DNA of 64,000 nucleotides, taken from assembly GCF_050920415.1 (NCBI RefSeq), contig NZ_CP169309.1. The stretch is one strand, 5' to 3'. The translations under genes and the position numbers were made by a program. Under the pieces are notes generated by a model, which had not been told where the DNA came from, did not search any database, and saw nothing but the letters and a program-made list of their open reading frames with translations. The stretch's first letter is position 1; the number at the start of each line of letters is the position of its first letter. Positions 1 to 18,501 of the stretch are shown piece after piece. This DNA comes from Escherichia coli (GTDB lineage Bacteria > Pseudomonadota > Gammaproteobacteria > Enterobacterales > Enterobacteriaceae).

Positions 1-342
1 ACTTAGGACTAACGACGTTTCAACACAGGTTCGGGTTTACTCATCTCACTGTATCTCACATAGGATCAGATCTCGTCTGATCGTTCCCCCTGCGCTCACT
101 ACCATGGCTCTTTACCACAGCAGCCGGGGTTGTTTGGGACCGACTTCCGACAGCAGATCCCGGTGGGCCTGCCACCATCTCTTCACAAGCTTATGCTTAT
201 TACATGCAAAACGTCCCGTTTTGCATCTTTGTGCCTACGGCACACGATGATCTTTCCCTGTACCACCTCCTCAGGAAGTGGTTTAAGGTTAATAACAAAA
301 ATACCAATCATTTTAATAAAATATGACGAGTATTTATTTTCA

Positions 343-615
343 TTATATTTTAAAGCATCCTAGCCCCTGCGATGCTCGCCATCGTTTTAACTCATCAACA
401 ATCCCTTGGGGACTATCTTCTCTATCTTCAGATGGATAGAATATCAAATCACTACCATCTGGGTGCTGAGTGATTCTAATAAAATGACTTACAAGATCAT
501 CAATAAACTTCGACAATTTATCGCCATGCAATTCCTCAGGTGGTTCAAAAAAATTATTTAGAAGTTCGATAAATTCATCTTCCGTATAATCTTCTAGATT
601 ATTTTTAAACTCCAT
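343..615 (-). CDS. Colicin-DNase-type immunity protein (Im7/Im9-like), 90 aa; candidate cognate immunity for the VgrG-fused DNase
   Basis: Translation MEFKNNLEDYTEDEFIELL...HPDGSDLIFYP...DSPQGIVDELKRWRA shares, from memory, the DYTE-EF, HPSGSDLIYYP and DSPSGIV..WRA motifs of Im9/Im7. AGGAGG Shine-Dalgarno 6 nt before the ATG; start lies 14 nt after the vgrG stop; AT-rich codon usage. Confidence 0.85.
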   Translation of the reverse strand: MEFKNNLEDYTEDEFIELLNNFFEPPEELHGDKLSKFIDDLVSHFIRITQHPDGSDLIFYPSEDREDSPQGIVDELKRWRASQGLGCFKI

Positions 616-629
616 TACTACCTCCTTTT

Positions 630-3600
630 TTATTTATGCAATCGTATGTGGTTTTTAGGTGTGTTTACTCTAAGATTATCAATATCATAGACTTCTCCCC
701 CATATTGGATTTCGTCAATATGATGAATTTCAAATGTACCTCGCCCCCCAACTCTTTGTCTTGATATAGTATAAGGTGCGCGTCCACGCTTTATCAACGT
801 TTGGTTAGCTTTATTAAATTGGCTCAATAGTTCTGGACATTCACCTACAGCAGTCCAGAAAGCTGCCCTGAATTCATCAAAATTGTTAAATGACTTACTC
901 CGAAGTTTATTTGCGACCTGTTGTGGAATTGGCACTCCTAAGCTTTTCCCCGCCTGCGACAGCCATCTTCCTGTACCTGCTAACACCTCCCCCTTACCTG
1001 TTACTGTTCCCGCTTCATCCCTTGCAGTTTTCAGATACACATATATTGGTGTTAATTCCGCACCGTCAGGAAAGACAAGTATCCAGTCATTAAAATTTCG
1101 CTCCTCCGGCATTGGAGAAGGCGGCGTGGTGATATCTGTTTTTTCATCGGGTATCGGATTAACATAAATATCAGGTAGATCAACTGGTTCGACAGGAGTT
1201 CCGGTGTGTATGGGCTGCTCTGAACCTTCTGGCTTTGCAGGCGTCCAAAATATTTTTGGTCCCGAATCAGACACAGGTGAAAATTCATAACGGGAAAATT
1301 CCTTATTCCACTCCATCAATGCTACCCGAACACCTTCAAGTTCCGAACCTGCGGGTGTGTGGTATCCGTATGTTCTCAATTCACCAGCAGTATTCCGCTG
1401 AAAGAGAAAGCGCGCCCGCGTAGCTGCCGTCTCTCCAGATTGCGCTTTACGACGTAGCTCATTTTCGAGCCACTGTTCATCCCGTCCAGGAACTTTATCA
1501 CTACCTTCACCGGCAGGTATTGGATATAGTGCTGATACTAGAACACCAAGGGCTGGCACCGTTTTTGATACACTTAAAAAACCTTCTCCACCCCATGCCC
1601 CTAATGTTCCCCATACGCGAGTTAAAACTCCCGCAGACTGTTCCGCCGCTAGTGGAACCGCAACACCCGCTGACGCAACTGTCATTTCCCCCGTCAGTGA
1701 GTTCGCTCCTGAAGTTTTTTTTGCTGACTGCGCAAGTTGCTCCACTTCATCGTCATGATAGTGTGTACCATAGCCGCAACAGTCATCCTCCACTGGCTGG
1801 GCAAATAGAGCCATATCACCAAAATGTTTCGATGGCTCCATGGTCGTACCAGCATCAGTGCAGCCTTTCTCCTTCAGACAAGATTTTGCGTATACAGGAA
1901 TTACCAGTTCATCTGAATCGTCCTTGTCTTCTTCTCCACCTTCTGATTCATCCTCATCACTAGGCTCTCCGTCATTCCCGCCGCCAGCATTCCCTCTGTC
2001 ATACTGCTCGTCAGCCAGAGCGTCCATAACTGCCGGTTGTAGTGTATTTATCGGCGTCCCCGGACTGCCCCCGCCATTCAGATTTATTTTCGGTCCGACA
2101 ATATCCACACCACCAGAATGAACGACCACAAACGAGCCCCCCACCTTCAGGCTTATCCGGCTGCTGCTCTCCAGCACGATATCCCCGTCCACCTTGATCC
2201 CCAGCGCGCCACTCACCTTCTCCGCCAGGTCGCCCTTCACCTCCAGACTGTGCGTTCCCTCCACCAGACTGATATGGTTCCCCGTCGTCTTATGCTCCTG
2301 CTTCCCTTCCACCGTCACTTTACGGTCGTTTCTGACATACAGGCCGTCATCGTGACTCACGCTCACCGTCCGGTCATTCGTCACCTTCAGCGTCTGGTCA
2401 TTACGTACCGTTATGCGCCGGTCGTTCGCCACCGTGATACTCTGGTCGTGACCCCCTTCTTTTCTGGTGCCGACCTCAACCGTCTGCCCCTTCACCACCC
2501 TTATCTTCTGGTCGTTACCGATGGTCTCCGTATGGTCATGCTTCACGTCCGTCCGCCGGTCGTTAAGCACCTCCGTGTCCATGTTCTTCTGCGCGTGGAT
2601 ATACACCTGCTCACTGTCCGTCGCATCCTCGAAACGCAGTTCATTAAAGCCGCTTCCTTTATAGGTCTTCGAGCGGATGGTCATCTGCGTCCGCGTGCCC
2701 GGTAAATCCCCCGGTGAACGGTTGTCCTCATGGTATGTCCGCCCCGTCACAATGGGCTGGTCCGGGTCGCCGTTCAGAAAGTCCACTATCACTTCCTGAC
2801 CCACACGCGGTATCGCCAGATTGCCGAACCCCGGTCCCGCCCATGCCTGCGACACCCGTATCCAGCATGAACTCTCCTCCGTCATCCCGTGATAACGGTC
2901 CCAGTGAAACTTCACCCGTACCCGGCCATGTTCGTCGCAGAATATCTCCTCGCCCTTCGGCCCGGTCACAATGGCACTCTGCGGGCCGTCCACCTTCGGC
3001 TTCGGCAGCGGCGCGTGACGCCACGTCCTGTCTGCCGGTATCACCTCAAACTGATTGCTCAGTGTCGTCCCTTCACCGTGACTCCCGTGCAGCGCCTGCG
3101 GCTGTTCTCCCCGCAGTGTGCTTCCCACAACCTGCCATTCCCGGTTCAGCGTCCCTGACGGATGGCCCGTCAGCCGGAACCGCGTTCCCGGCCACAGTCG
3201 CGCCGTGTTACACACCCCGCTCGCCGTCTCCGCCCCGTTCCGCCACCCTTCCGTCTGGTAACGCGCAAAATCCTGGCCATGCTGCTCATCCTTGAAACGC
3301 CCCGGATAATCAAATATCTCGTACTGCGTTCCCTGCCCGTTCAGGCTCTCCCCGTCATGGCTGTAGTACCCCGGCCACCCCGGCGTTTTGAACGTATAAT
3401 CCTGCGTCTCCACCGACGCCACGCTTATCTGCGCACGGTAACGGAAGTCGCTGATGTACTCTGTCGTGCCTCCGGTCGTGGTATTCGGGTTAAACGCCAG
3501 CGCCCCCATTCCCGTCAGCCCCGCCACGTCATCACACACCGCCAGCTTCTGTTCCGGCCCGTCCTGACTGCAGCGTTCATAAAAGAAGATACCTTCCTCC

Positions 3601-4085
3601 GCCCACAGCCGGGTCAGGAATGTCAGGTCGCTCTCCCCGTACTGCACGCAGAACTCCCGCGCCGGGTGCGCCTCATAGAACAGCGGCATCCACGCCGTCA
3701 CCCCGTTCTCTCTCAGAAGCTGTGCTGATATCGTCCCTATGTCCTGCTGCTGGAAGATACGGAAGTTCTGCCGTAACCCTGCCCGCCACAGCGGCGGGCT
3801 GATGCTCAGGGAATAACGCATCTGCCAGTCGTTGTTCTCACCGAGCTGCACCTCCGTCACGATACCGCTGACGTAACGCTGCGGGATATCACCCTGCCAG
3901 ACCGTCAGCACCGCGCTCTTCTCCAGAAAATCCTCCGCCGTCAGGTCAGACAGCCCGCTGGCGATATCCACATCCAGGATGAACGGCGTGCAGTGGTGCT
4001 GGTACAGACGGAAGCTCACCACCGCCGTCGCCATCTCCACGATACCGGCCACCGACAGCGTGAAACGTAATCCTTCTGAGGACAT
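630..4085 (-). CDS. vgrG: Evolved VgrG (T6SS spike, gp27/gp5-like core) with about 430 aa C-terminal extension ending in a colicin E9-like HNH DNase domain
   Basis: Six-frame ORF 630..4118 (1162 aa). N-terminus MSSEGLRFTL... is VgrG-like, so the likely start is the ATG at 4085 with a GGGG motif upstream (ORF-track alternative 4118). The middle has gp5-type repeats (VANDRRITVRNDQTLKVTNDRTVSV...). The C-terminus ...FDEFRAAFW...RQRVGGRGTFEIHHIDEIQYGGEVYDIDNLRVNTPKNHIRLHK matches the colicin E9/E7 DNase H-N-H motif by eye. Confidence 0.88.
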   Translation of the reverse strand: MSSEGLRFTLSVAGIVEMATAVVSFRLYQHHCTPFILDVDIASGLSDLTAEDFLEKSAVLTVWQGDIPQRYVSGIVTEVQLGENNDWQMRYSLSISPPLWRAGLRQNFRIFQQQDIGTISAQLLRENGVTAWMPLFYEAHPAREFCVQYGESDLTFLTRLWAEEGIFFYERCSQDGPEQKLAVCDDVAGLTGMGALAFNPNTTTGGTTEYISDFRYRAQISVASVETQDYTFKTPGWPGYYSHDGESLNGQGTQYEIFDYPGRFKDEQHGQDFARYQTEGWRNGAETASGVCNTARLWPGTRFRLTGHPSGTLNREWQVVGSTLRGEQPQALHGSHGEGTTLSNQFEVIPADRTWRHAPLPKPKVDGPQSAIVTGPKGEEIFCDEHGRVRVKFHWDRYHGMTEESSCWIRVSQAWAGPGFGNLAIPRVGQEVIVDFLNGDPDQPIVTGRTYHEDNRSPGDLPGTRTQMTIRSKTYKGSGFNELRFEDATDSEQVYIHAQKNMDTEVLNDRRTDVKHDHTETIGNDQKIRVVKGQTVEVGTRKEGGHDQSITVANDRRITVRNDQTLKVTNDRTVSVSHDDGLYVRNDRKVTVEGKQEHKTTGNHISLVEGTHSLEVKGDLAEKVSGALGIKVDGDIVLESSSRISLKVGGSFVVVHSGGVDIVGPKINLNGGGSPGTPINTLQPAVMDALADEQYDRGNAGGGNDGEPSDEDESEGGEEDKDDSDELVIPVYAKSCLKEKGCTDAGTTMEPSKHFGDMALFAQPVEDDCCGYGTHYHDDEVEQLAQSAKKTSGANSLTGEMTVASAGVAVPLAAEQSAGVLTRVWGTLGAWGGEGFLSVSKTVPALGVLVSALYPIPAGEGSDKVPGRDEQWLENELRRKAQSGETAATRARFLFQRNTAGELRTYGYHTPAGSELEGVRVALMEWNKEFSRYEFSPVSDSGPKIFWTPAKPEGSEQPIHTGTPVEPVDLPDIYVNPIPDEKTDITTPPSPMPEERNFNDWILVFPDGAELTPIYVYLKTARDEAGTVTGKGEVLAGTGRWLSQAGKSLGVPIPQQVANKLRSKSFNNFDEFRAAFWTAVGECPELLSQFNKANQTLIKRGRAPYTISRQRVGGRGTFEIHHIDEIQYGGEVYDIDNLRVNTPKNHIRLHK
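633..1004 (-). other. HNH (beta-beta-alpha-metal) colicin-type DNase toxin domain, the last ~124 aa of VgrG
   Basis: HH...N...H arrangement (EIHH, NTPKNH, RLHK) and a preceding KSLGVPIPQQVANKLRSKSFNNFDEFRAAFW segment, collinear with the colicin E9 DNase domain as remembered. About 38% GC by eye, versus about 60% for the VgrG core. Confidence 0.75.
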
Positions 4086-4260
4086 ATAAACCCCATAGCT
4101 ACCGCACTCATGGTGCAAACCATACGGGCTTATAAGAAAGGCTTAAGTGAGATATCTGCCAGATAGCAACTATTAGGAAAATATTTATATATATTTCATG
4201 AATATATATTTCGGTTGGTATAACGGTGTCTAAATATTCCTCTGAACATCTTCCTGATAC

Positions 4261-4298
4261 AAAAAAACCGCCAGCGTTTCCGCTGGCGGTTTTCTTTG
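4261..4298 (-). terminator. Rho-independent terminator downstream of ybfA (bidirectional hairpin), insulating ybfA from the vgrG promoter
   Basis: A-run, then 9-bp perfect stem ccgccagcg/cgctggcgg with tttc loop, then T-run. Confidence 0.75.
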
Positions 4299-4315
4299 AA
4301 CGTAATATTTAGCAA

Positions 4316-4522
4316 TCAGTAAAAATCACCGGTTGCCTTTTCGGCCTGATCCATCCACACCGGTTTATCGCTGGTTTTCGACCAGACGCGGTGCAGGTAG
4401 CTGTAAAAGCGGGCGCGGTCTTTCCAGAAAAGCATGAAAGGCAGCGCCAAAACGCCCGCTGCAACCGCATAAGTACGGCGTAAAAAGATAAGCCATGCAG
4501 GATATTCTCTGTAGAGTTCCAT
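4316..4522 (-). CDS. ybfA: YbfA, DUF2517 small membrane protein (68 aa)
   Basis: Translation [29 protein letters not shown]... matches K-12 YbfA from memory; position adjacent to kdp. Confidence 0.8.
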
Positions 4523-4731
4523 ACTTTTCTCCCCCTTTTGTATCTACCCGGTGAATGGCACCGGAAAAATGAATTTGTTTATCTGATGAAAATAGTACCG
4601 CCTTTTGTGTAATTTTACTACTCATCCGACCACTTATTTTTGCTTATTGATGGTTTATTTACATTCACCCCGTAATTAAGTTACATAAAAGTTAAATTAA
4701 TACTAAACATTAGTTAAATCATGGCTTTTGC

Positions 4732-4800
4732 CATTTTTATACTTTTTTTACACCCCGTCCGCAGATTTTTGCGAAATCTTTGCAGCCAGAATTCTACCCT
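4732..4800 (+). promoter_or_regulatory. kdpFABC promoter region with KdpE-binding site (catttttatactttttttacacccc)
   Basis: T-rich direct-repeat element matching the remembered KdpE operator, about 75-100 nt upstream of kdpF. Confidence 0.55.
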
Positions 4801-4834
4801 TCCGGTATCACTTTTAGGCCACTGGAGGTGCACT

Positions 4835-4924
4835 GTGAGTGCAGGCGTGATAACCGGCGTATTGCTGGTGTTTTTATTACTGGGTTATCTGGTTTATGCC
4901 CTGATCAATGCGGAGGCGTTCTGA
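4835..4924 (+). CDS. kdpF: KdpF, 29-aa K+-ATPase subunit
   Basis: GTG start after GGAGG; [29 protein letters not shown]; stop TGA overlaps the kdpA ATG (tgATGg). Confidence 0.8.
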
Positions 4925-6597
4925 TGGCTGCGCAAGGGTTCTTACTGATTGCCACGTTTTTACTGGTGTTAATGGTGCTGGCGCGCCCTTTGGGCAGTGG
5001 GCTGGCGCGGCTGATTAATGATATTCCTCTTCCTGGTACGACGGGCGTTGAGCGCGTACTCTTTCGTGTACTCGGCGTCTCTGGCCTTGAGATGAACTGG
5101 AAGCAGTATCTCTCTGCCATTCTCGGCCTGAACATGCTGGGGCTGGCGGTGCTGTTTTTTATGTTGCTCGGTCAGCACTATCTACCGCTTAACCCGCAGC
5201 AGTTACCGGGGCTGTCGTGGGATCTGGCGCTGAATACTGCCGTCAGCTTTGTCACTAATACCAACTGGCAATCTTATAGCGGTGAAACCACATTAAGCTA
5301 TTTCAGCCAGATGGTGGGCTTAACGGTACAAAACTTTCTTTCTGCCGCCAGCGGGATTGCGGTGATTTTTGCCCTCATTCGTGCATTTACCCGCCAGAGC
5401 ATGAGCACACTCGGCAATGCCTGGGTCGATCTGCTACGCATCACGTTATGGGTGTTAGCCCCGGTGGCGTTGTTGATCGCGCTGTTTTTTATTCAACAAG
5501 GTGCGTTGCAAAACTTTCTTCCCTATCAGTCGGTTACGACTGTTGAAGGGGCGCAACAGCTGTTACCAATGGGTCCGGTGGCTTCTCAGGAAGCGATCAA
5601 GATGCTCGGCACTAATGGCGGCGGTTTCTTTAATGCCAACTCATCGCATCCGTTTGAAAACCCGACCGCACTGACCAACTTCGTGCAGATGCTGGCGATC
5701 TTCTTGATCCCAACAGCGCTGTGCTTTGCCTTTGGTGAAGTGGCAGGCGATCGCCGCCAGGGGCGCATGTTGCTGTGGGCGATGTCAGTGATTTTTGTCA
5801 TCTGCGTAGGCGTGGTGATGTGGGCAGAAGTTCAGGGTAATCCTCATCTGCTGGCGCTGGGTGCGGACAGCAGCATCAATATGGAAGGTAAAGAGAGCCG
5901 TTTCGGCGTGCTGGTCAGTAGCCTGTTTGCGGTCGTGACTACGGCGGCTTCCTGTGGCGCGGTGATTGCGATGCATGATTCGTTTACCGCTCTCGGTGGC
6001 ATGGTGCCGATGTGGCTGATGCAAATTGGTGAAGTGGTATTCGGCGGTGTCGGTTCTGGTCTTTACGGCATGATGCTGTTCGTTCTGCTGGCGGTGTTTA
6101 TTGCCGGGCTGATGATTGGTCGTACACCGGAATATCTGGGTAAAAAAATCGACGTACGTGAGATGAAACTGACTGCACTGGCGATTCTGGTCACCCCGAC
6201 GCTGGTGCTGATGGGCGCGGCGCTGGCAATGATGACCGACGCCGGACGTAGCGCCATGCTCAACCCTGGCCCGCATGGTTTTAGCGAAGTGCTGTACGCC
6301 GTGTCATCCGCCGCTAACAACAACGGCAGCGCCTTTGCCGGCTTAAGCGCCAACTCTCCGTTCTGGAACTGTTTACTGGCGTTCTGCATGTTTGTCGGTC
6401 GCTTCGGGGTGATTATCCCGGTGATGGCGATTGCCGGTTCGCTGGTGAGTAAAAAGAGCCAGCCCGCCAGCTCCGGCACGCTACCAACGCACGGCCCGCT
6501 GTTTGTTGGTCTGTTGATCGGCACCGTGTTGCTGGTTGGCGCACTGACCTTTATCCCTGCCCTGGCGCTTGGTCCGGTGGCGGAATATCTCTCCTGA
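4924..6597 (+). CDS. kdpA: KdpA, K+-translocating ATPase channel subunit
   Basis: [16 protein letters not shown]...; the ORF-track 5' extension (4780) is rejected in favour of the ATG overlapping the kdpF stop. Confidence 0.95.
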
Positions 6598-11926: not shown

Positions 11927-12600
11927 CAAACGTTCTGATTGTTGAAGATGAACAGGCTATTCGTCGCTTTCTGCGCACAGCGCTGGAGGGCGATGGGATG
12001 CGCGTTTTTGAAGCCGAAACGCTGCAACGGGGGCTGCTGGAAGCGGCGACTCGTAAGCCAGATTTGATTATTCTCGATCTCGGCCTGCCAGACGGTGATG
12101 GGATTGAGTTTATCCGCGACCTGCGCCAGTGGAGCTCGGTGCCAGTAATTGTGCTTTCCGCCCGCAGCGAAGAGAGCGACAAAATCGCCGCGCTGGATGC
12201 CGGAGCGGATGATTACCTGAGTAAGCCATTTGGTATTGGCGAATTACAGGCCCGTCTGCGCGTTGCTTTACGTCGCCACTCCGCCACCACCGCGCCCGAG
12301 CCGCTGGTGAAATTTTCTGATGTTACCGTCGATTTAGCCGCCCGCGTGATTCACCGCGGTGAGGAAGAGGTGCATCTCACCCCGATTGAATTCCGCCTGC
12401 TGGCGGTGCTGCTCAACAATGCCGGAAAAGTGCTCACCCAGCGCCAGCTTCTCAACCAGGTGTGGGGACCAAACGCGGTCGAACACAGCCACTATTTGCG
12501 TATTTATATGGGACATCTGCGACAAAAACTGGAGCAAGATCCCGCCCGCCCTCGCCATTTTATTACTGAAACCGGTATTGGGTATCGGTTTATGCCATGA
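11923..12600 (+). CDS. kdpE: KdpE response regulator (OmpR family)
   Basis: GTG start overlapping the kdpD stop; [17 protein letters not shown]...; 225 aa. Confidence 0.95.
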   Translation: MTNVLIVEDEQAIRRFLRTALEGDGMRVFEAETLQRGLLEAATRKPDLIILDLGLPDGDGIEFIRDLRQWSSVPVIVLSARSEESDKIAALDAGADDYLSKPFGIGELQARLRVALRRHSATTAPEPLVKFSDVTVDLAARVIHRGEEEVHLTPIEFRLLAVLLNNAGKVLTQRQLLNQVWGPNAVEHSHYLRIYMGHLRQKLEQDPARPRHFITETGIGYRFMP

Positions 12601-12645
12601 ATTATTATTCAATAAATACGCTTAACTAATTATTAATTCATTATT

Positions 12646-12679
12646 AAACCTGCCCCGAAAATTATTATTTGGCAGGTTT
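12646..12679 (+). terminator. Putative kdp operon terminator
   Basis: aaacctgcc / ggcaggttt 9-bp stem with a long AT-rich loop; weak T tract. Confidence 0.45.
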
Positions 12680-12874
12680 AATTTCTTAATGAAAATATAA
12701 CCTACGAAATTACAACATTTAAACAACAAAACAGCATCTAATATGGCGCCACTCTTAATTAACGATTTATTATTTTGGGCGTGATCGTTTTTTGTTGATC
12801 TTCTTCACAGTTTATAGCCTTTTCATGGATAGAATAACTCTACCTTCAACTGACACAGCAAAAGGTAAAGGTAA

Positions 12875-12979
12875 ATGGAAAATAATAACCGCTTAATGCC
12901 TCATATAAGGCGGACAACCCATATCATGAAGTTTGCCCATCGTAATAGTTTTGACTTTCATTTCTTTAATGCCCGTTAG
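12875..12979 (+). CDS. speFL: SpeFL, 34-codon ornithine-sensing arrest/leader peptide of the speF operon
   Basis: ATG...TAG ORF translating MENNNRLMPHIRRTTHIMKFAHRNSFDFHFFNAR, about 300 nt upstream of speF; not in the ORF track (below 60 aa). Differs at two or three N-terminal positions from my memory of the K-12 peptide. Confidence 0.7.
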   Translation: MENNNRLMPHIRRTTHIMKFAHRNSFDFHFFNAR

Positions 12980-13289
12980 TCTTCTGACTAAAGGGCACCC
13001 CAGCGTACAGGTCTCCCTGACTTTAAGCATTACAGGTTAATACCTGTATCCCTCGGTGCTCATATACTGCTAACCCTTTTAAACTCTAAATAATTCAAGT
13101 CGCAGCACTAGCAACTTGAAGTATGACGAGTATAGCCAGTTACCGGGCTGGTCTGGGTTATTGCATCTGCAAAAAGCAAACTACTGATTTATTTATCAGC
13201 GGTGGAGTTTTGCTTTTTTTCCGGCGTGATCGATTTCTCCTTTGAGAAATTGAGGACCTGCTATTACCTGAAATAAAGAGATGAACAAA

Positions 13290-15488
13290 ATGTCAGAATT
13301 AAAAATTGCCGTTAGTCGTTCTTGCCCGGATTGTTTTTCCACTCATCGTGCATGCGTGAATATTGACGAAAGTAATTATATTGACGTTGCCGCCATTATT
13401 TTGTCGGTCAATGATGTTGAACGTGGAAAACTCGATGAAATAGACGCTACTGGCTATGGCATTCCTATTTTTATTGCAACGGAAAATGAAGAACGTGTAC
13501 CAGCAGAATATCTGCCACGTATTACTGGTGTCTTCGAGCATTGCGAATCACGGAAAGAATTTTACGGACGTCAGTTAGAAACCGCCGCCAGCCATTATGA
13601 AACGCAGCTGCGCCCGCCCTTCTTCCGCGCACTGGTCGATTATGTCAATCAGGGCAATAGCGCTTTTGACTGCCCGGGTCATCAGGGGGGTGAGTTTTTC
13701 CGTCGCCATCCGGCAGGCAATCAGTTCGTGGAATATTTTGGCGAAATGCTCTTCCGCTCCGACTTGTGTAATGCCGACGTAGCAATGGGCGATCTACTGA
13801 TTCATGAAGGTGCGCCATGCATTGCACAGCAACATGCAGCTAAAGTGTTTAATGCCGATAAAACGTACTTTGTTTTAAACGGCACCTCCTCTTCCAACAA
13901 AGTGGTTTTAAACGCCCTGCTAACACCGGGTGATCTGGTGCTGTTTGACCGCAATAACCATAAGTCTAACCACCACGGGGCCTTGCTACAGGCTGGTGCA
14001 ACACCGGTTTATCTGGAAACAGCACGTAACCCGTATGGTTTTATCGGTGGTATTGATGCGCACTGCTTCGAAGAAAGTTATCTGCGTGAACTGATTAAAG
14101 AAGTTGCACCGCAACGGGCAAAAGAGGCGCGTCCGTTCCGCCTCGCTGTGATTCAGTTAGGCACCTACGACGGTACTATTTATAACGCCCGCCAGGTGGT
14201 GGATAAAATCGGTCATCTGTGTGACTACATCCTGTTTGACTCAGCATGGGTCGGCTATGAACAGTTTATTCCGATGATGGCGGACTGTTCGCCGCTGCTA
14301 CTGGAGCTTAATGAGAACGATCCGGGTATTCTGGTTACGCAATCTGTACATAAGCAGCAGGCTGGTTTTTCCCAGACTTCACAAATTCATAAAAAAGACA
14401 GCCATATCAAAGGGCAACAGCGTTATGTCCCGCACAAACGCATGAACAACGCCTTTATGATGCACGCCTCCACCAGCCCGTTCTATCCGCTGTTTGCCGC
14501 ACTGGATATTAACGCCAAAATGCATGAAGGTGTCAGCGGTCGTAATATGTGGATGGATTGTGTGGTTAACGGTATTAATGCCCGCAAATTGATCCTCGAT
14601 AACTGTCAGCACATTCGTCCGTTCGTTCCTGAACTGGTGGATGGTAAACCCTGGCAATCGTATGAAACAGCGCAAATTGCGGTTGATCTGCGCTTCTTTA
14701 AATTTGTACCCGGTGAGCACTGGCATTCTTTTGAAGGTTACGCAGAGAATCAATACTTTGTCGATCCGTGCAAACTGTTGCTGACAACTCCTGGCATTGA
14801 TGCACGTAACGGCGAATATGAAGCATTCGGTGTACCCGCGACGATTCTTGCTAACTTCCTGCGCGAAAATGGCGTAGTGCCGGAAAAATGCGATCTTAAC
14901 TCCATCCTCTTCCTGCTGACTCCGGCAGAAGATATGGCCAAACTGCAGCAACTTGTTGCCCTGCTGGTACGCTTCGAAAAACTACTGGAAGCTGATGCGC
15001 CTCTGGCGGAAGTATTGCCTTCCATCTACAAACAGCATGAAGAGCGCTACGCCGGTTATACCCTGCGTCAGTTGTGCCAGGAAATGCATGATTTGTATGC
15101 CCGTCACAACGTGAAACAACTGCAAAAAGAGATGTTCCGTAAGGAACACTTCCCACGCGTCAGCATGAATCCACAGGAAGCCAACTATGCCTACTTACGC
15201 GGTGAAGTGGAACTGGTTCGTCTGCCGGATGCAGAAGGCCGTATCGCAGCCGAAGGTGCGCTTCCTTATCCTCCGGGTGTGCTGTGTGTTGTTCCGGGTG
15301 AAATCTGGGGTGGTGCTGTTCTGCGTTACTTCAGCGCTCTGGAAGAAGGGATCAACCTGCTGCCAGGTTTTGCACCGGAGCTGCAGGGTGTCTATATCGA
15401 AGAACATGATGGTCGTAAGCAAGTTTGGTGCTATGTCATCAAGCCTCGTGATGCGCAAAGCACCCTGTTGAAAGGGGAAAAATTATGA
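13290..15488 (+). CDS. speF: Inducible ornithine decarboxylase
   Basis: MSELKIAVS...; second in-frame ATG chosen (9-nt spacing from AAAGAG); PLP-dependent decarboxylase signature. Confidence 0.95.
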   Translation: MSELKIAVSRSCPDCFSTHRACVNIDESNYIDVAAIILSVNDVERGKLDEIDATGYGIPIFIATENEERVPAEYLPRITGVFEHCESRKEFYGRQLETAASHYETQLRPPFFRALVDYVNQGNSAFDCPGHQGGEFFRRHPAGNQFVEYFGEMLFRSDLCNADVAMGDLLIHEGAPCIAQQHAAKVFNADKTYFVLNGTSSSNKVVLNALLTPGDLVLFDRNNHKSNHHGALLQAGATPVYLETARNPYGFIGGIDAHCFEESYLRELIKEVAPQRAKEARPFRLAVIQLGTYDGTIYNARQVVDKIGHLCDYILFDSAWVGYEQFIPMMADCSPLLLELNENDPGILVTQSVHKQQAGFSQTSQIHKKDSHIKGQQRYVPHKRMNNAFMMHASTSPFYPLFAALDINAKMHEGVSGRNMWMDCVVNGINARKLILDNCQHIRPFVPELVDGKPWQSYETAQIAVDLRFFKFVPGEHWHSFEGYAENQYFVDPCKLLLTTPGIDARNGEYEAFGVPATILANFLRENGVVPEKCDLNSILFLLTPAEDMAKLQQLVALLVRFEKLLEADAPLAEVLPSIYKQHEERYAGYTLRQLCQEMHDLYARHNVKQLQKEMFRKEHFPRVSMNPQEANYAYLRGEVELVRLPDAEGRIAAEGALPYPPGVLCVVPGEIWGGAVLRYFSALEEGINLLPGFAPELQGVYIEEHDGRKQVWCYVIKPRDAQSTLLKGEKL

Positions 15489-16804
15489 GTCAGGCTAAAT
15501 CGAACAAAATGGGCGTCGTTCAGTTAACCATACTGACGATGGTCAACATGATGGGCTCCGGCATCATCATGCTGCCGACAAAGCTTGCCGAAGTTGGGAC
15601 AATCTCAATAATCTCCTGGTTGGTGACAGCCGTAGGCTCAATGGCGCTGGCATGGGCATTCGCAAAATGCGGTATGTTCAGCCGTAAATCAGGCGGTATG
15701 GGCGGTTATGCCGAGTATGCTTTCGGTAAATCCGGTAACTTTATGGCGAACTATACCTACGGCGTCTCGCTGCTGATTGCTAACGTGGCGATTGCTATTT
15801 CGGCAGTTGGTTACGGCACCGAACTGCTCGGCGCGAGTTTGTCACCAGTGCAGATTGGTCTGGCAACCATCGGAGTGCTGTGGATTTGTACCGTGGCTAA
15901 CTTTGGTGGTGCGCGCATTACCGGGCAAATCAGTAGCATTACCGTGTGGGGGGTCATTATTCCGGTGGTAGGCCTGTGCGTTATCGGCTGGTTCTGGTTT
16001 AGCCCGACACTTTACGTTGATTCCTGGAATCCGCATCATGCACCGTTCTTCAGTGCGGTAGGTTCTTCCATCGCCATGACGCTGTGGGCTTTTCTTGGTC
16101 TGGAGTCTGCGTGTGCGAATACTGATGTAGTGGAAAACCCGGAACGTAATGTGCCAATCGCGGTACTCGGCGGTACGTTAGGTGCGGCGGTGATTTATAT
16201 CGTCTCCACCAACGTGATTGCCGGGATTGTGCCCAATATGGAGCTGGCAAATTCAACGGCACCATTTGGTCTGGCCTTCGCGCAAATGTTCACACCGGAA
16301 GTGGGTAAAGTCATTATGGCGCTGATGGTGATGTCCTGCTGCGGTTCGCTACTTGGCTGGCAGTTCACCATTGCCCAGGTGTTTAAATCTTCATCTGATG
16401 AAGGCTACTTCCCTAAAATTTTCTCCCGTGTAACCAAAGTGGATGCACCGGTTCAGGGGATGTTGACCATTGTGATTATTCAGAGTGGATTGGCACTGAT
16501 GACCATTAGCCCGTCACTGAACAGCCAGTTCAACGTGCTGGTTAACCTGGCCGTGGTGACCAATATCATCCCATATATTCTGTCGATGGCGGCATTAGTC
16601 ATTATTCAGAAGGTCGCCAATGTGCCACCATCAAAAGCGAAAGTAGCAAACTTTGTTGCCTTTGTTGGTGCGATGTACAGTTTCTATGCGCTGTACTCAT
16701 CCGGGGAAGAAGCCATGCTGTACGGTTCCATCGTGACCTTCCTTGGTTGGACACTGTATGGTCTGGTATCACCACGCTTTGAACTGAAAAACAAACACGG
16801 TTAA
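15485..16804 (+). CDS. potE: Putrescine:ornithine antiporter
   Basis: 439 aa; MSQAKSNKMGVVQLTILTMVNMMGSGIIMLP; start overlaps the speF stop. Confidence 0.95.
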   Translation: MSQAKSNKMGVVQLTILTMVNMMGSGIIMLPTKLAEVGTISIISWLVTAVGSMALAWAFAKCGMFSRKSGGMGGYAEYAFGKSGNFMANYTYGVSLLIANVAIAISAVGYGTELLGASLSPVQIGLATIGVLWICTVANFGGARITGQISSITVWGVIIPVVGLCVIGWFWFSPTLYVDSWNPHHAPFFSAVGSSIAMTLWAFLGLESACANTDVVENPERNVPIAVLGGTLGAAVIYIVSTNVIAGIVPNMELANSTAPFGLAFAQMFTPEVGKVIMALMVMSCCGSLLGWQFTIAQVFKSSSDEGYFPKIFSRVTKVDAPVQGMLTIVIIQSGLALMTISPSLNSQFNVLVNLAVVTNIIPYILSMAALVIIQKVANVPPSKAKVANFVAFVGAMYSFYALYSSGEEAMLYGSIVTFLGWTLYGLVSPRFELKNKHG

Positions 16805-16821
16805 AAAAGCGAAATAAAAAA

Positions 16822-16848
16822 GGGCGATCTTCCGACCGCCCTTTTTCT
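16822..16848. terminator. Bidirectional terminator between convergent potE and pgm
   Basis: A-run, gggcgatc/gaccgccc stem, T-run. Confidence 0.6.
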
Positions 16849-16860
16849 TATTTAATGTGT

Positions 16861-18501
16861 TTACGCGTTTTTCAGAACTTCGCTAACAATCTCAACCGCT
16901 TCTTTCTCGATCTGCTTGCGATGTTCTTCACCGAGGAAGCTTTCGCAGTAGATTTTGTATGCGTCTTCCGTGCCTGACGGACGCGCGGCGAACCAGCCGT
17001 TGTCAGTCATCACTTTCAGACCGCCAATAGAAGCACCGTTGCCCGGAGCAGCAGTCAGGCGCGCGGTGATCGGGTCGCCTGCCAGGGTGCTGGCGCTCAC
17101 CATTTCCGGAGACAGCTTAGACAGCGCCGCTTTTTGTGCGGAAGTCGCAGCTGCCTGCAAACGGTTGTAGCTCGGCGCACCAAAGCGTTTTGCCAGTTCG
17201 TTGTAGTGTTCCTGCGGGTTCTTACCGGTAACAGCAGTGATTTCCGCCGCCAGCAGACACATAATGATACCGTCTTTATCGGTGGACCACGGCGTGCCGT
17301 CGAAACGCAGGAAGGAAGCCCCTGCGCTCTCTTCGCCGCCAAAGCCGAAACTGCCGTCGAACAGACCATCAACAAACCATTTGAAGCCTACCGGGACTTC
17401 TACCAGCTTACGGCCCAAATCATTGACCACACGGTCGATCATCGCAGATGAAACCAGCGTTTTACCGACAGCAACATCTTTGCCCCACTGCGGACGATGC
17501 TGGAACAGGTAGTTGATCGCCACCGCCAGGTAGTGGTTCGGATTCATCAAACCTGCCGGAGTGACGATACCGTGACGGTCATAATCCGGGTCGTTAGCAA
17601 ACGCCAGATCGAACTTATCACGCAGTGCCAGCAGACCCGCCATCGCACACTCGGAGGAGCAGTCCATACGGATCGCGCCGTCTTTATCGAGGTGCATAAA
17701 GCGGAAGGTTTGATCGACCTGATCGTTAACGATGGTCAGGTTAAGGTTGTAATACTCGCCAATACGCTTCCAGTATTCGATACCGGAACCGCCCAGCGGA
17801 TCAACGCCCAGCGTCAGGCCCGCTTTCTGAATCGCCGCCATATCAACGATATCGGCCAGACCTTCCACAAACGGCTGCACCAGATCCTGCTCTTTCACAT
17901 GACCGGATGCCATCGCTTCGTCAAGGGAGATACGCTTCACGCCTTTCAGGCCATCGGCCAGCAGTGCGTTGGCCCTGTCTTCCACCACTTTGGTGACGTT
18001 AGTATCAGCCGGGCCACCATTTGGCGGATTGTACTTGATACCACCATCTTCCGGCGGGTTATGGGACGGTGTAATCACGATACCGTCTGCCAGCGGGCCA
18101 CCTTTTTTATTGTGAACCAGGATGGCATTGGAAACGGCAGGCGTCGGAGTGAAGCCATTGTTTTCCTGCACAATAACATCTACGCCGTTCGCTGCCAGCA
18201 CTTCCAGTACGGAAATGAACGCAGGCTCGGACAGGGCGTGAGTATCTTTACCCACATAGCAAGGGCCAGTGATGCCGTTTTTCGCACGTTCTTCAGCAAT
18301 TGCCTGAGCGATCGCCAGAATGTGCGGCTCGTTAAAGCTGTGGCGCGCTGCACTGCCACGGTGACCGGAAGTACCGAATTTCACCGCGTGCTCCGCATTC
18401 CCTGCTTCTGGTTTCAGTACATAATATTGCGCCGTCAGTTGGGCGACGTTAATCAAATCACTCTGTTGTGCAGGTTGGCCTGCACGATTGTGGATTGCCA
18501 T
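16861..18501 (-). CDS. pgm: Phosphoglucomutase
   Basis: [22 protein letters not shown]...; active-site TSGHRGS (phosphoserine loop); start at the internal ATG with AAGGA Shine-Dalgarno (ORF-track extension rejected). Confidence 0.95.

Follow-up and report, generated by a model that had tools for sequence, protein, structure and literature searches.

Which signals govern a vgrG gene that stands alone among core genes of Escherichia coli, and what secretion machine could its product serve? The question is raised by the spacer at positions 4086-4315 of a 64,000-nt stretch of DNA (the window), which corresponds to 3,486,661-3,550,660 of the chromosome of strain MFDS1022581 (NZ_CP169399.1, to which all record coordinates refer; the first 4.8 kb are 100% identical). 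A first-pass annotation had described 4119-4315 as an AT-rich, horizontally acquired promoter region that is probably silenced, with H-NS as the presumed silencer, and the vgrG as an auxiliary spike for a distant type VI secretion system (T6SS). We hold it to be fairly probable that the spacer combines the ybfA terminator with a weak, protein-occupied and probably silenced leader, which would drive a VgrG-DNase/immunity operon whose product rides the distant T6SS encoded at aspV.

On the plus strand, the window runs from part of a group II intron through an immunity gene, a long open reading frame (ORF) and the spacer 4086-4315 to ybfA, kdpFABCDE, speF-potE and other core genes up to mrdA. The core gene ybfA (4316-4522, minus strand; DUF2517, Pfam PF10725 and RefSeq) lies upstream of vgrG on the same strand, and only 629 nt of the window lie downstream of vgrG. 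The 5' part of the intron (1-260, minus strand; Rfam RF01999 at 59-176, 93 bits, and RefSeq annotation) marks the end of the cassette and is 100% identical to a copy in the aspV T6SS island, and to the left of the window the genome record contains, before ybgA, only the intron with its ltrA, which is frameshifted in the RefSeq annotation, and an ISAs1 fragment. The locus is the classical RhsC site of K-12 (ybfA-rhsC-...-H-repeat-ybgA), a hot spot occupied here by an accessory island of 6.65 kb (ybfA-...-ISAs1-ybgA). In ST131 the site is empty, with ybgA about 100 nt from ybfA, and because this empty site is homologous to the window only from the A-run of the terminator onwards, the island start is placed at about 4262. 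The DNA to the left of this point is accessory, and 4261-4315 is core-genome DNA consisting of the ybfA stop-codon spacer and the strong intrinsic ybfA terminator. As the first-pass annotation had stated, the window holds no hcp, PAAR, tss or adaptor genes, RefSeq annotation giving core genes only from kdp to mrdA over the 64 kb, and the annotation between ybfA and ybgA likewise contains no PAAR or adaptor (DUF4123/DUF2169/DUF1795) partner.

The long ORF (630-4085, minus strand, stop codon at 630-632) encodes a single uninterrupted VgrG-Pyocin_S-DNase protein of 1151 aa. Its VgrG core (aa 1-696, nt 1998-4085; Phage_GPD with E = 6e-74, Phage_base_V and Gp5_C/Gp5 repeats in Pfam) is followed on the same strand by an acidic linker and a further stretch, by a Pyocin_S domain (aa 878-1017, nt 1035-1454; Pfam) and by a ColE9-like HNH DNase (Col-Pyo_DNase, aa 1026-1151, nt 633-1010; Pfam and PDB match). 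In the PDB, the C-terminal 130 residues match the colicin E9 and E7 DNases (E ~ 1e-38), with the HH..N..H..H motif in place. The immunity gene (343-615, minus strand, 90 aa) begins 14 nt past the stop codon, belongs to the Im7/Im9 family (Pfam Colicin_Pyocin PF01320, E = 1.5e-32; Im7 in the PDB, E = 4e-25) and is named 'bacteriocin immunity protein' in RefSeq; it is presumably cognate to the DNase. With Pyocin_S and Col-Pyo_DNase in the vgrG ORF and a Colicin_Pyocin gene at 343-615, the module thus has its own effector/immunity pair. The gp27/gp5-like core, the in-frame C-terminal toxin domain and the immunity gene directly downstream are the features of an evolved VgrG. The gene is more than the 'auxiliary spike' of the earlier description, since Pfam and PDB matches identify a spike-toxin fusion accompanied by an immunity gene.

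In RefSeq, PGAP divides this ORF into a tssI pseudogene 'missing C-terminus' and a separate S-type pyocin CDS. We read this split as an annotation artefact, because the ORF is intact and its architecture is identical and likewise intact in strain N96, which shows 11 differences from MFDS1022581, all of them in the N-terminal region, and an identical toxin half. The pseudogene call reflects the absence of the canonical VgrG C-terminus, which is replaced by the toxin. A protein search with the full-length fusion brought up mostly ordinary VgrGs, with no full-length fusion among the matches listed; for the C-terminal half, searched separately, the best identity among the proteins returned was 57%.

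By architecture, the closest characterised relative is VgrG-NucSe1 (SARI_02603) from SPI-21 of S. enterica subsp. arizonae, for which a role in T6SS-dependent interbacterial competition and immunity by SARI_02602 have been reported (PMC12992299). The two were compared by domain order: both are evolved VgrGs of about 1150-1200 aa with the same order of domains, a C-terminal S-type pyocin/colicin HNH DNase and an adjacent colicin/pyocin immunity gene. SARI_02603, however, lies inside its own T6SS cluster, whereas the vgrG of the window stands alone at the RhsC hot spot, with the T6SS core about 640 kb away. The cassette of linker, Pyocin_S and Col-Pyo_DNase is also found elsewhere in Enterobacterales on Hcp, PAAR or VgrG carriers with an identity of 45-57%; the protein search returned it on Hcp in Kluyvera, Citrobacter and E. 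coli, on PAAR in Pectobacterium and Photorhabdus, and on VgrG in Siccibacter. It is the cassette of the Hcp-ET3/ET4 effectors (PMC6730261) and of the PAAR-linked Pyocin_S-DNase effectors, from which the protein studied here differs in its VgrG carrier and by the identity given above.

The same chromosome encodes a machine that such a spike could use. A T6SS core adjoining the tRNA-Asp gene aspV lies at 4,130,358-4,151,166, about 640 kb from the vgrG of the window (3,487,290-3,490,745), and comprises tssB, C, E, F, G, tagH, tssJ, K, L, H, vasI, tssA, tssM, vasL plus one of two hcp genes; the annotation marks none of them as a pseudogene or as defective. Divergent from the tssB operon, the island carries as cargo hcp, three further vgrG genes, two PAAR genes, Tae4, Tle1 and DUF4123. 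The genome search for tss core genes and PAAR/DUF4123 partners that had been suggested thus found all of them in the aspV island; the prediction that the core is encoded elsewhere holds, and the case of a genome devoid of any T6SS, in which the module would be a relic, does not apply. With the vgrG away from the core and a complete core elsewhere in the genome, the locus has the arrangement of an orphan cargo island. Over 696 aa the VgrG core shares 94% identity with the VgrG encoded after hcp in the aspV island, which makes the use of the aspV T6SS by the window VgrG very plausible, and it is 97.9% identical to an IS21-truncated copy in the same genome. The VgrG-DNase would be mounted as a spike of the aspV T6SS and the DNase delivered into neighbouring bacteria, with the Im7/9-like protein presumably protecting the producer and its kin.

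The region that would control this operon is not quite the one originally delimited as lying between the ybfA terminator and the vgrG start, because the interval 4119-4315 includes the terminator and the gene starts with the ATG at 4085, not with the in-frame TTG at 4118; the paralogues in the same genome begin with MSSEGLRF at the ATG, and DNA homology to them ends at 4087. The interval is a composite of the ybfA terminator, 43 nt of island flank and a leader of about 130 nt (4086-4218) that reaches to the vgrG ATG. The terminator (4261-4296, minus strand) has a GC stem at 4268-4276/4281-4289 with the loop at 4277-4280 and a U-run on the ybfA strand, is bounded by A/T runs (4261-4293), folds with -29.3 kcal/mol (z = -6.6) and is conserved in ST131 and K-12; a consensus terminator scanner did not list it. 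All Rfam matches on the terminator were below threshold (trpB motif 27.7 vs 59 bits, NsiR1 23.9 vs 39 bits), and a scan of 1-5000 at E <= 1 returned no RNA family in the leader. The adjoining flank (4219-4261) is specific to the E. coli RhsC site, being shared by K-12 and absent from the ST131 empty site and from Pseudocitrobacter. At the other end, the proximal leader (4086-4118, minus strand) is a probable 5' UTR of vgrG type, with a GGGG Shine-Dalgarno sequence at 4091-4094; rhs leaders lack it, and it is conserved in the vgrG leader of Pseudocitrobacter and on metagenome contig L107. The idea that 4086-4116 is left over from a deleted PAAR gene or from a PAAR-vgrG spacer was rejected, as the alignment to four PAAR-vgrG junctions was unconvincing.

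The terminator bears directly on the question of whether the operon has a promoter of its own. The co-orientation of ybfA and vgrG, the listing of ybfA as directly ArcA-activated (PMC3798270) and the lack of a consensus promoter would agree with a vgrG that is reached solely by read-through from ybfA, while the tssI gene marked incomplete by PGAP, the frameshifted copy of the cassette in strain ET350, the truncated second copy in strain RMDEC465 and the frameshifted ltrA could point to a decaying relic that is never expressed. We consider either version highly improbable. Read-through would have to pass a strong terminator, whose 16-bp stem is uninterrupted (nine G-C pairs in its core) and followed by a U7 tail, and decay is at odds with the 1151-aa ORF being uninterrupted in two genomes with identical toxin halves, with the intact HNH motif, immunity gene and T6SS core, and with a leader that outdoes the coding start in conservation across genera.

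We infer that the leader carries the only plausible promoter of the two-gene operon, i.e., vgrG-pyocinS-HNH DNase plus the immunity gene. A constitutive sigma70 promoter, which would speak against silencing, was not apparent: the consensus scan of 3900-4900 gave 0 sites with >=9 of 12 matches vs 1.8 expected, and neither this nor the position weight matrix (PWM) scan found near-consensus -35/-10 elements with a spacing of 16-18 nt. The best PWM candidate is a weak sigma70-like core promoter (4119-4146, minus strand) composed of TTAAGC (4146-4141), N16 and TATGGT (4124-4119), which is outscored by the best hit in 96% of shuffles. Because the candidate scores worse than chance for its composition, the true promoter may be situated elsewhere or depend on another sigma factor; an RpoE-holoenzyme SELEX peak has been described in vitro within the ybfA-rhsC spacer (PMC5493296). 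We favour the candidate despite its score because its hexamers are kept in Pseudocitrobacter (they read TTAAGG/TAGGGT in rhs leaders), and because the point at which rhs-type and vgrG-type leaders diverge lies directly past the -10 element. A shared promoter followed by gene-specific 5' UTRs would fit this divergence point. Such a non-consensus promoter, situated below the conserved palindrome and the AT-rich tract, would place the transcription start near 4112; a text search of the literature for published transcription starts of rhsC or ybfA yielded nothing usable.

The AT-richness of 4119-4315 that had attracted attention is confirmed (35.0% GC vs 51.1% for the window, with 1.9% of 197-nt segments as AT-rich). 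It is nevertheless ordinary for an E. coli spacer, because the adjacent core spacers ybfA-kdpF and kdpE-speF have 36.2% and 36.1% GC, respectively. The GC content is 31-35% over 4119-4261 and 35% over 4086-4261, and the AT-rich tract is short (about 175 nt), giving way to a vgrG body with 60% GC. The spacer is thus AT-rich and acquired, as expected of a xenogeneic promoter (35% vs 51% GC; ST131 site empty), yet no more AT-rich than core spacers.

Indications of silencing come from the homologous element of K-12, which according to the Fig 1G legend of PMC8282354 is a transcriptionally silent, protein-occupied domain. The coordinates that this source gives on NC_000913.3 include EPODs in rich medium at 728,535-733,285 and 733,360-739,095, an EPOD in stationary phase starting from 729,405, just past the ybfA terminator, and IPOD-HR occupancy peaks at 729,436-729,496 in both rich medium and stationary phase (cutoff 1; PMC8282354). 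Via alignments, this peak corresponds to 4159-4219 of the window. The K-12 sequence on which the occupancy was recorded departs from the window downstream of 4117 and drives rhsC, in a strain without a T6SS; by homology, silencing of the vgrG operon in laboratory culture is plausible. Since the homologous K-12 tract is protein-occupied in vivo and forms the start of a silent domain, the operon would most likely be kept off in standard culture by nucleoid-protein occupancy, putatively of the H-NS type, and a counter-silencer or activator would be needed for its expression.

Whether H-NS itself nucleates on the AT-rich tract and silences the vgrG promoter directly, a reading that overlaps with ours, is a separate matter, to which we give a real chance, albeit one short of even. 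The low GC content over 4119-4261, the accessory nature of the DNA as judged from the ST131 empty site and the silent EPOD begun by the K-12 homologue all fit it, and 72% of EPODs fall in the high-H-NS class in the data given by PMC8282354, with about a quarter to a third outside it. The related aspV-type T6SS of EHEC is also repressed in vitro and only partly derepressed in an hns mutant (PMC13141884, PMC7216683). On the other hand, the high-affinity H-NS motif TCGATAAATT has no match within 2 mismatches in 4086-4315, although a perfect match occurs at 566-575 inside the immunity gene, where three near matches fall within 500-575. The tract of about 175 nt is no higher in AT content than the adjacent core spacers, the K-12 occupancy signal does not identify the bound protein, and EPOD status is not specific to H-NS. 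The first-pass assignment of silencing to H-NS in particular is therefore not supported by the motif search, and the PNAS match returned by a literature search on rhsC and H-NS concerned an incidental rhsC mutation only.

The comparison with EHEC extends to gene order, as in the aspV T6SS of MFDS1022581, too, hcp-vgrG and the tssB operon point in opposite directions. It does not extend to the control region, since the hcp-vgrG spacer of MFDS1022581, the counterpart of the EHEC hcp3-vgrG3 spacer h3R, is unlike the leader of the window beyond the ribosome-binding site and ATG. We therefore rejected an h3R-type origin of the leader, and this lack of homology suggests that the orphan vgrG is controlled separately from h3R.

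The origin of the leader is indicated by its distribution. Part of 4060-4330 is matched in 5264 of the 5426 E. coli genomes, with 4117-4330 covered in about 28 of 40 evenly spaced match rows, and this region is 87-90% identical to the ybfA-rhsC spacer of most E. coli (about 90% to K-12 over 4117-4261). The block 4117-4190 also precedes rhsA/rhsB-type genes adjoining yibF, as seen in the alignment to an rhsB-linked copy. The homology to rhs leaders ends at about 4117, 31 nt before the ATG, so that 4117-4261 has the character of an rhs-element leader, which is lost from 4116 to the ATG. The vgrG-type junction was present in only three of the 5426 complete E. coli genomes (MFDS1022581, N96 and RMDEC465). 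In metagenomes, an exact 26-nt pattern for the vgrG-type leader gave 0 matches, and with a looser pattern 119 of 120 leaders were of rhs type and one (L107) of vgrG type; among GTDB representatives the palindrome pattern occurred in a single genome. The leader in its full extent, from about 4218 to the ATG, is found again in Pseudocitrobacter faecalis, next to rpmE and before a different vgrG allele (MSSLKGLRF...). Identity to the window is 93% over the proximal 75 nt and 83% over the following 46 nt, but 66% over the first 58 nt of the coding sequence and 52% in the DNA upstream of the leader, i.e., the leader is better conserved between these genera than the coding start. The presumption of horizontal acquisition thus stands insofar as the DNA is accessory and absent from the ST131 empty site, but judged from these alignments the promoter did not arrive with the vgrG: the leader is a fixed part of the RhsC site in most E. 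coli.

The leader also contains two elements at which a specific regulator might act. A perfect palindrome, TATCTGnCAGATA, at 4153-4165 is present in all leader copies, and in strain N96 an IS66 element is inserted in it, some 65-70 nt ahead of the ATG. Next to it, an RcsAB-box-like sequence, TAAATATTTTCCTA, at 4174-4187 on the minus strand matches the RcsAB box at 11 of 14 positions, and within it TTTTCCTA at 4174-4181 on the minus strand agrees at 8 of 8 positions with the core wwTTCykA as given in PMC3950696. The leader could accordingly be an activator-dependent promoter, at which an RcsB heteromer such as BglJ-RcsB, bound at the box, and/or a factor at the palindrome would co-activate rhsA, rhsB, rhsC and vgrG. 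BglJ-RcsB is an antagonist of H-NS repression. The shared block 4117-4190 in the rhsA/rhsB leaders, the invariance of the palindrome and a K-12 occupancy peak (PMC8282354) that spans the box agree with such co-activation, and sites for the putative targets rhsA and rhsB rank among the top 14 genome-wide BglJ-RcsB predictions in K-12 (PMC3950696). However, rhsC itself is not among the predicted targets listed there. RcsAB-box matches at three mismatches are moreover as frequent across the window as expected by chance (4 found vs 3.2 expected), so we treat the box as a lead only, and the invariance of the palindrome proves little because gene conversion homogenises the rhs copies. Taken as a whole, dependence on such an activator seems unlikely to us.

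Compared with the RhsC element of K-12, the locus has the same site, left flank, distal leader and ISAs1/H-repeat right end, but the cargo is vgrG-DNase instead of a PAAR-Rhs toxin, and between about 4117 and the start codon the leaders differ. Further arrangements were found in other strains. In RMDEC465 the same leader is followed by an ordinary vgrG and by a glycoside-hydrolase effector with its immunity gene, and the second copy in this strain is truncated. In N96, vgrG-DNase and its immunity gene are followed by an ISAs1 fragment, a 5'-truncated hydrolase gene with its immunity gene, and the group II intron; MFDS1022581 has lost this hydrolase remnant. ET350 has the same cassette at the RhsE site behind a PAAR gene, 87.5% identical and with one frameshift. 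From these four arrangements we conclude that the cargo has been exchanged between a fixed left leader and ISAs1/H-repeat DNA on the right; the exchange itself is seen as an outcome, whereas its mechanism is an inference. Three of the strains seem to represent consecutive steps in the replacement of a toxin cassette at an Rhs hot spot.

The promoter half of the leader thus stands before rhsA, rhsB, rhsC and the vgrG of the window, and the whole leader before another vgrG in Pseudocitrobacter. On this basis we tentatively raise the idea, to which we attach limited credence, that the leader of about 120 nt is a portable regulatory cassette for T6SS cargo, which would place dispersed genes under one signal and at the same time serve as the left homology arm for toxin swaps. 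The palindrome and/or the RcsB-heteromer box would then act against nucleoid-protein silencing, and the ISAs1/H-repeat DNA would be the right arm.

The components of the locus are all of known kinds, i.e., evolved VgrG nucleases, Rhs hot spots, orphan T6SS cargo islands and silent AT-rich leaders; this is ordinary biology that leaves current concepts unchanged. What is new is a VgrG-DNase allele found in only a few E. coli and wrongly divided in RefSeq, its junction with the RhsC-site leader, and the finding that this leader travels with vgrG genes across genera. [quoted passage not shown] The locus is also a clear example of toxin-cassette replacement at an Rhs hot spot. The T6SS of E. coli is notoriously silent in vitro, and a short conserved leader that is protein-occupied in its K-12 copy offers a place to seek the signal that activates the dispersed T6SS cargo of this species.

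The RefSeq/PGAP annotation divides the toxin gene into a tssI pseudogene ('missing C-terminus') and a second CDS for a 403-aa 'S-type pyocin domain-containing protein', which together are one intact ORF of 1151 aa encoding a VgrG-pyocinS-DNase fusion (window 630-4085, i.e., NZ_CP169399.1 3,487,290-3,490,745). The identical tssI / S-type pyocin split is found in strain N96, and an annotation artefact of this kind may lie behind many of the stand-alone 'S-type pyocin' entries of roughly 450 aa that the protein search turned up.

The vgrG start codon is overlapped by an out-of-frame upstream ORF (ATGAGTGCGGTAGCTATGGGG...), whose minus-strand ATG lies at window 4109-4111, with no obvious Shine-Dalgarno sequence for it. 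Its first 9 codons are kept in the homologous leader of Pseudocitrobacter, where a stop follows after 12 codons, and this ORF would be located at the extreme 5' end of the proposed vgrG transcript. In N96, an IS66 element (about 12,150-14,800 of the N96 locus, equivalent to window 4150-4158) interrupts the conserved palindrome, about 65-70 nt 5' of the vgrG ATG; the target site is duplicated around CAGATATCT. The insertion keeps the candidate -35/-10 elements and removes the AT-rich upstream tract; N96 is thus a natural truncation mutant of the putative promoter. Genomic SELEX with the RpoE holoenzyme gave a peak in the K-12 ybfA-rhsC spacer, the homologue of window 4117-4315 (PMC5493296). No convincing match to GGAACTT-N16-TCTGA was found; the K-12 palindrome contains TCTGA, and the window has TCTGG. 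On the ybfA side, the terminator hairpin at 4261-4296 is obvious (z = -6.6 by the folding tool); it was not reported by the consensus terminator scanner run on both strands over window about 3900-4900.

Matches to the H-NS high-affinity motif cluster within the immunity gene at window 500-575, comprising one perfect copy (TCGATAAATT, 566-575), one with a single mismatch (515-524) and a further two with 2 mismatches each. For H-NS nucleation, should it occur in this module, the motif distribution favours the 3' end over the promoter tract.

At the RhsE site (yncG...pptA) of strain ET350, the vgrG-DNase-imm cassette (13,100-17,144 of that locus) is preceded by a stand-alone PAAR gene, which the ybfA-site copies lack, and followed by a second module, PAAR-vgrG-DUF2169-PAAR-like. 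The group II intron at the cassette end (window 1-260) has a second copy in the MFDS1022581 genome, where it closes the aspV T6SS island (17176-17435 of the island locus, L008); the two share 100% identity across 260 nt. Both copies are followed by ISAs1 remnants, and ltrA is frameshifted in the window-side copy and intact in the aspV copy. In the same island, a 'peptidoglycan DD-metalloendopeptidase' gene opens with 69 nt (L008 27951-28019) that are 96% identical to the vgrG start, a match which suggests that the 5' end of this gene is chimeric, a relic of an earlier cassette exchange.
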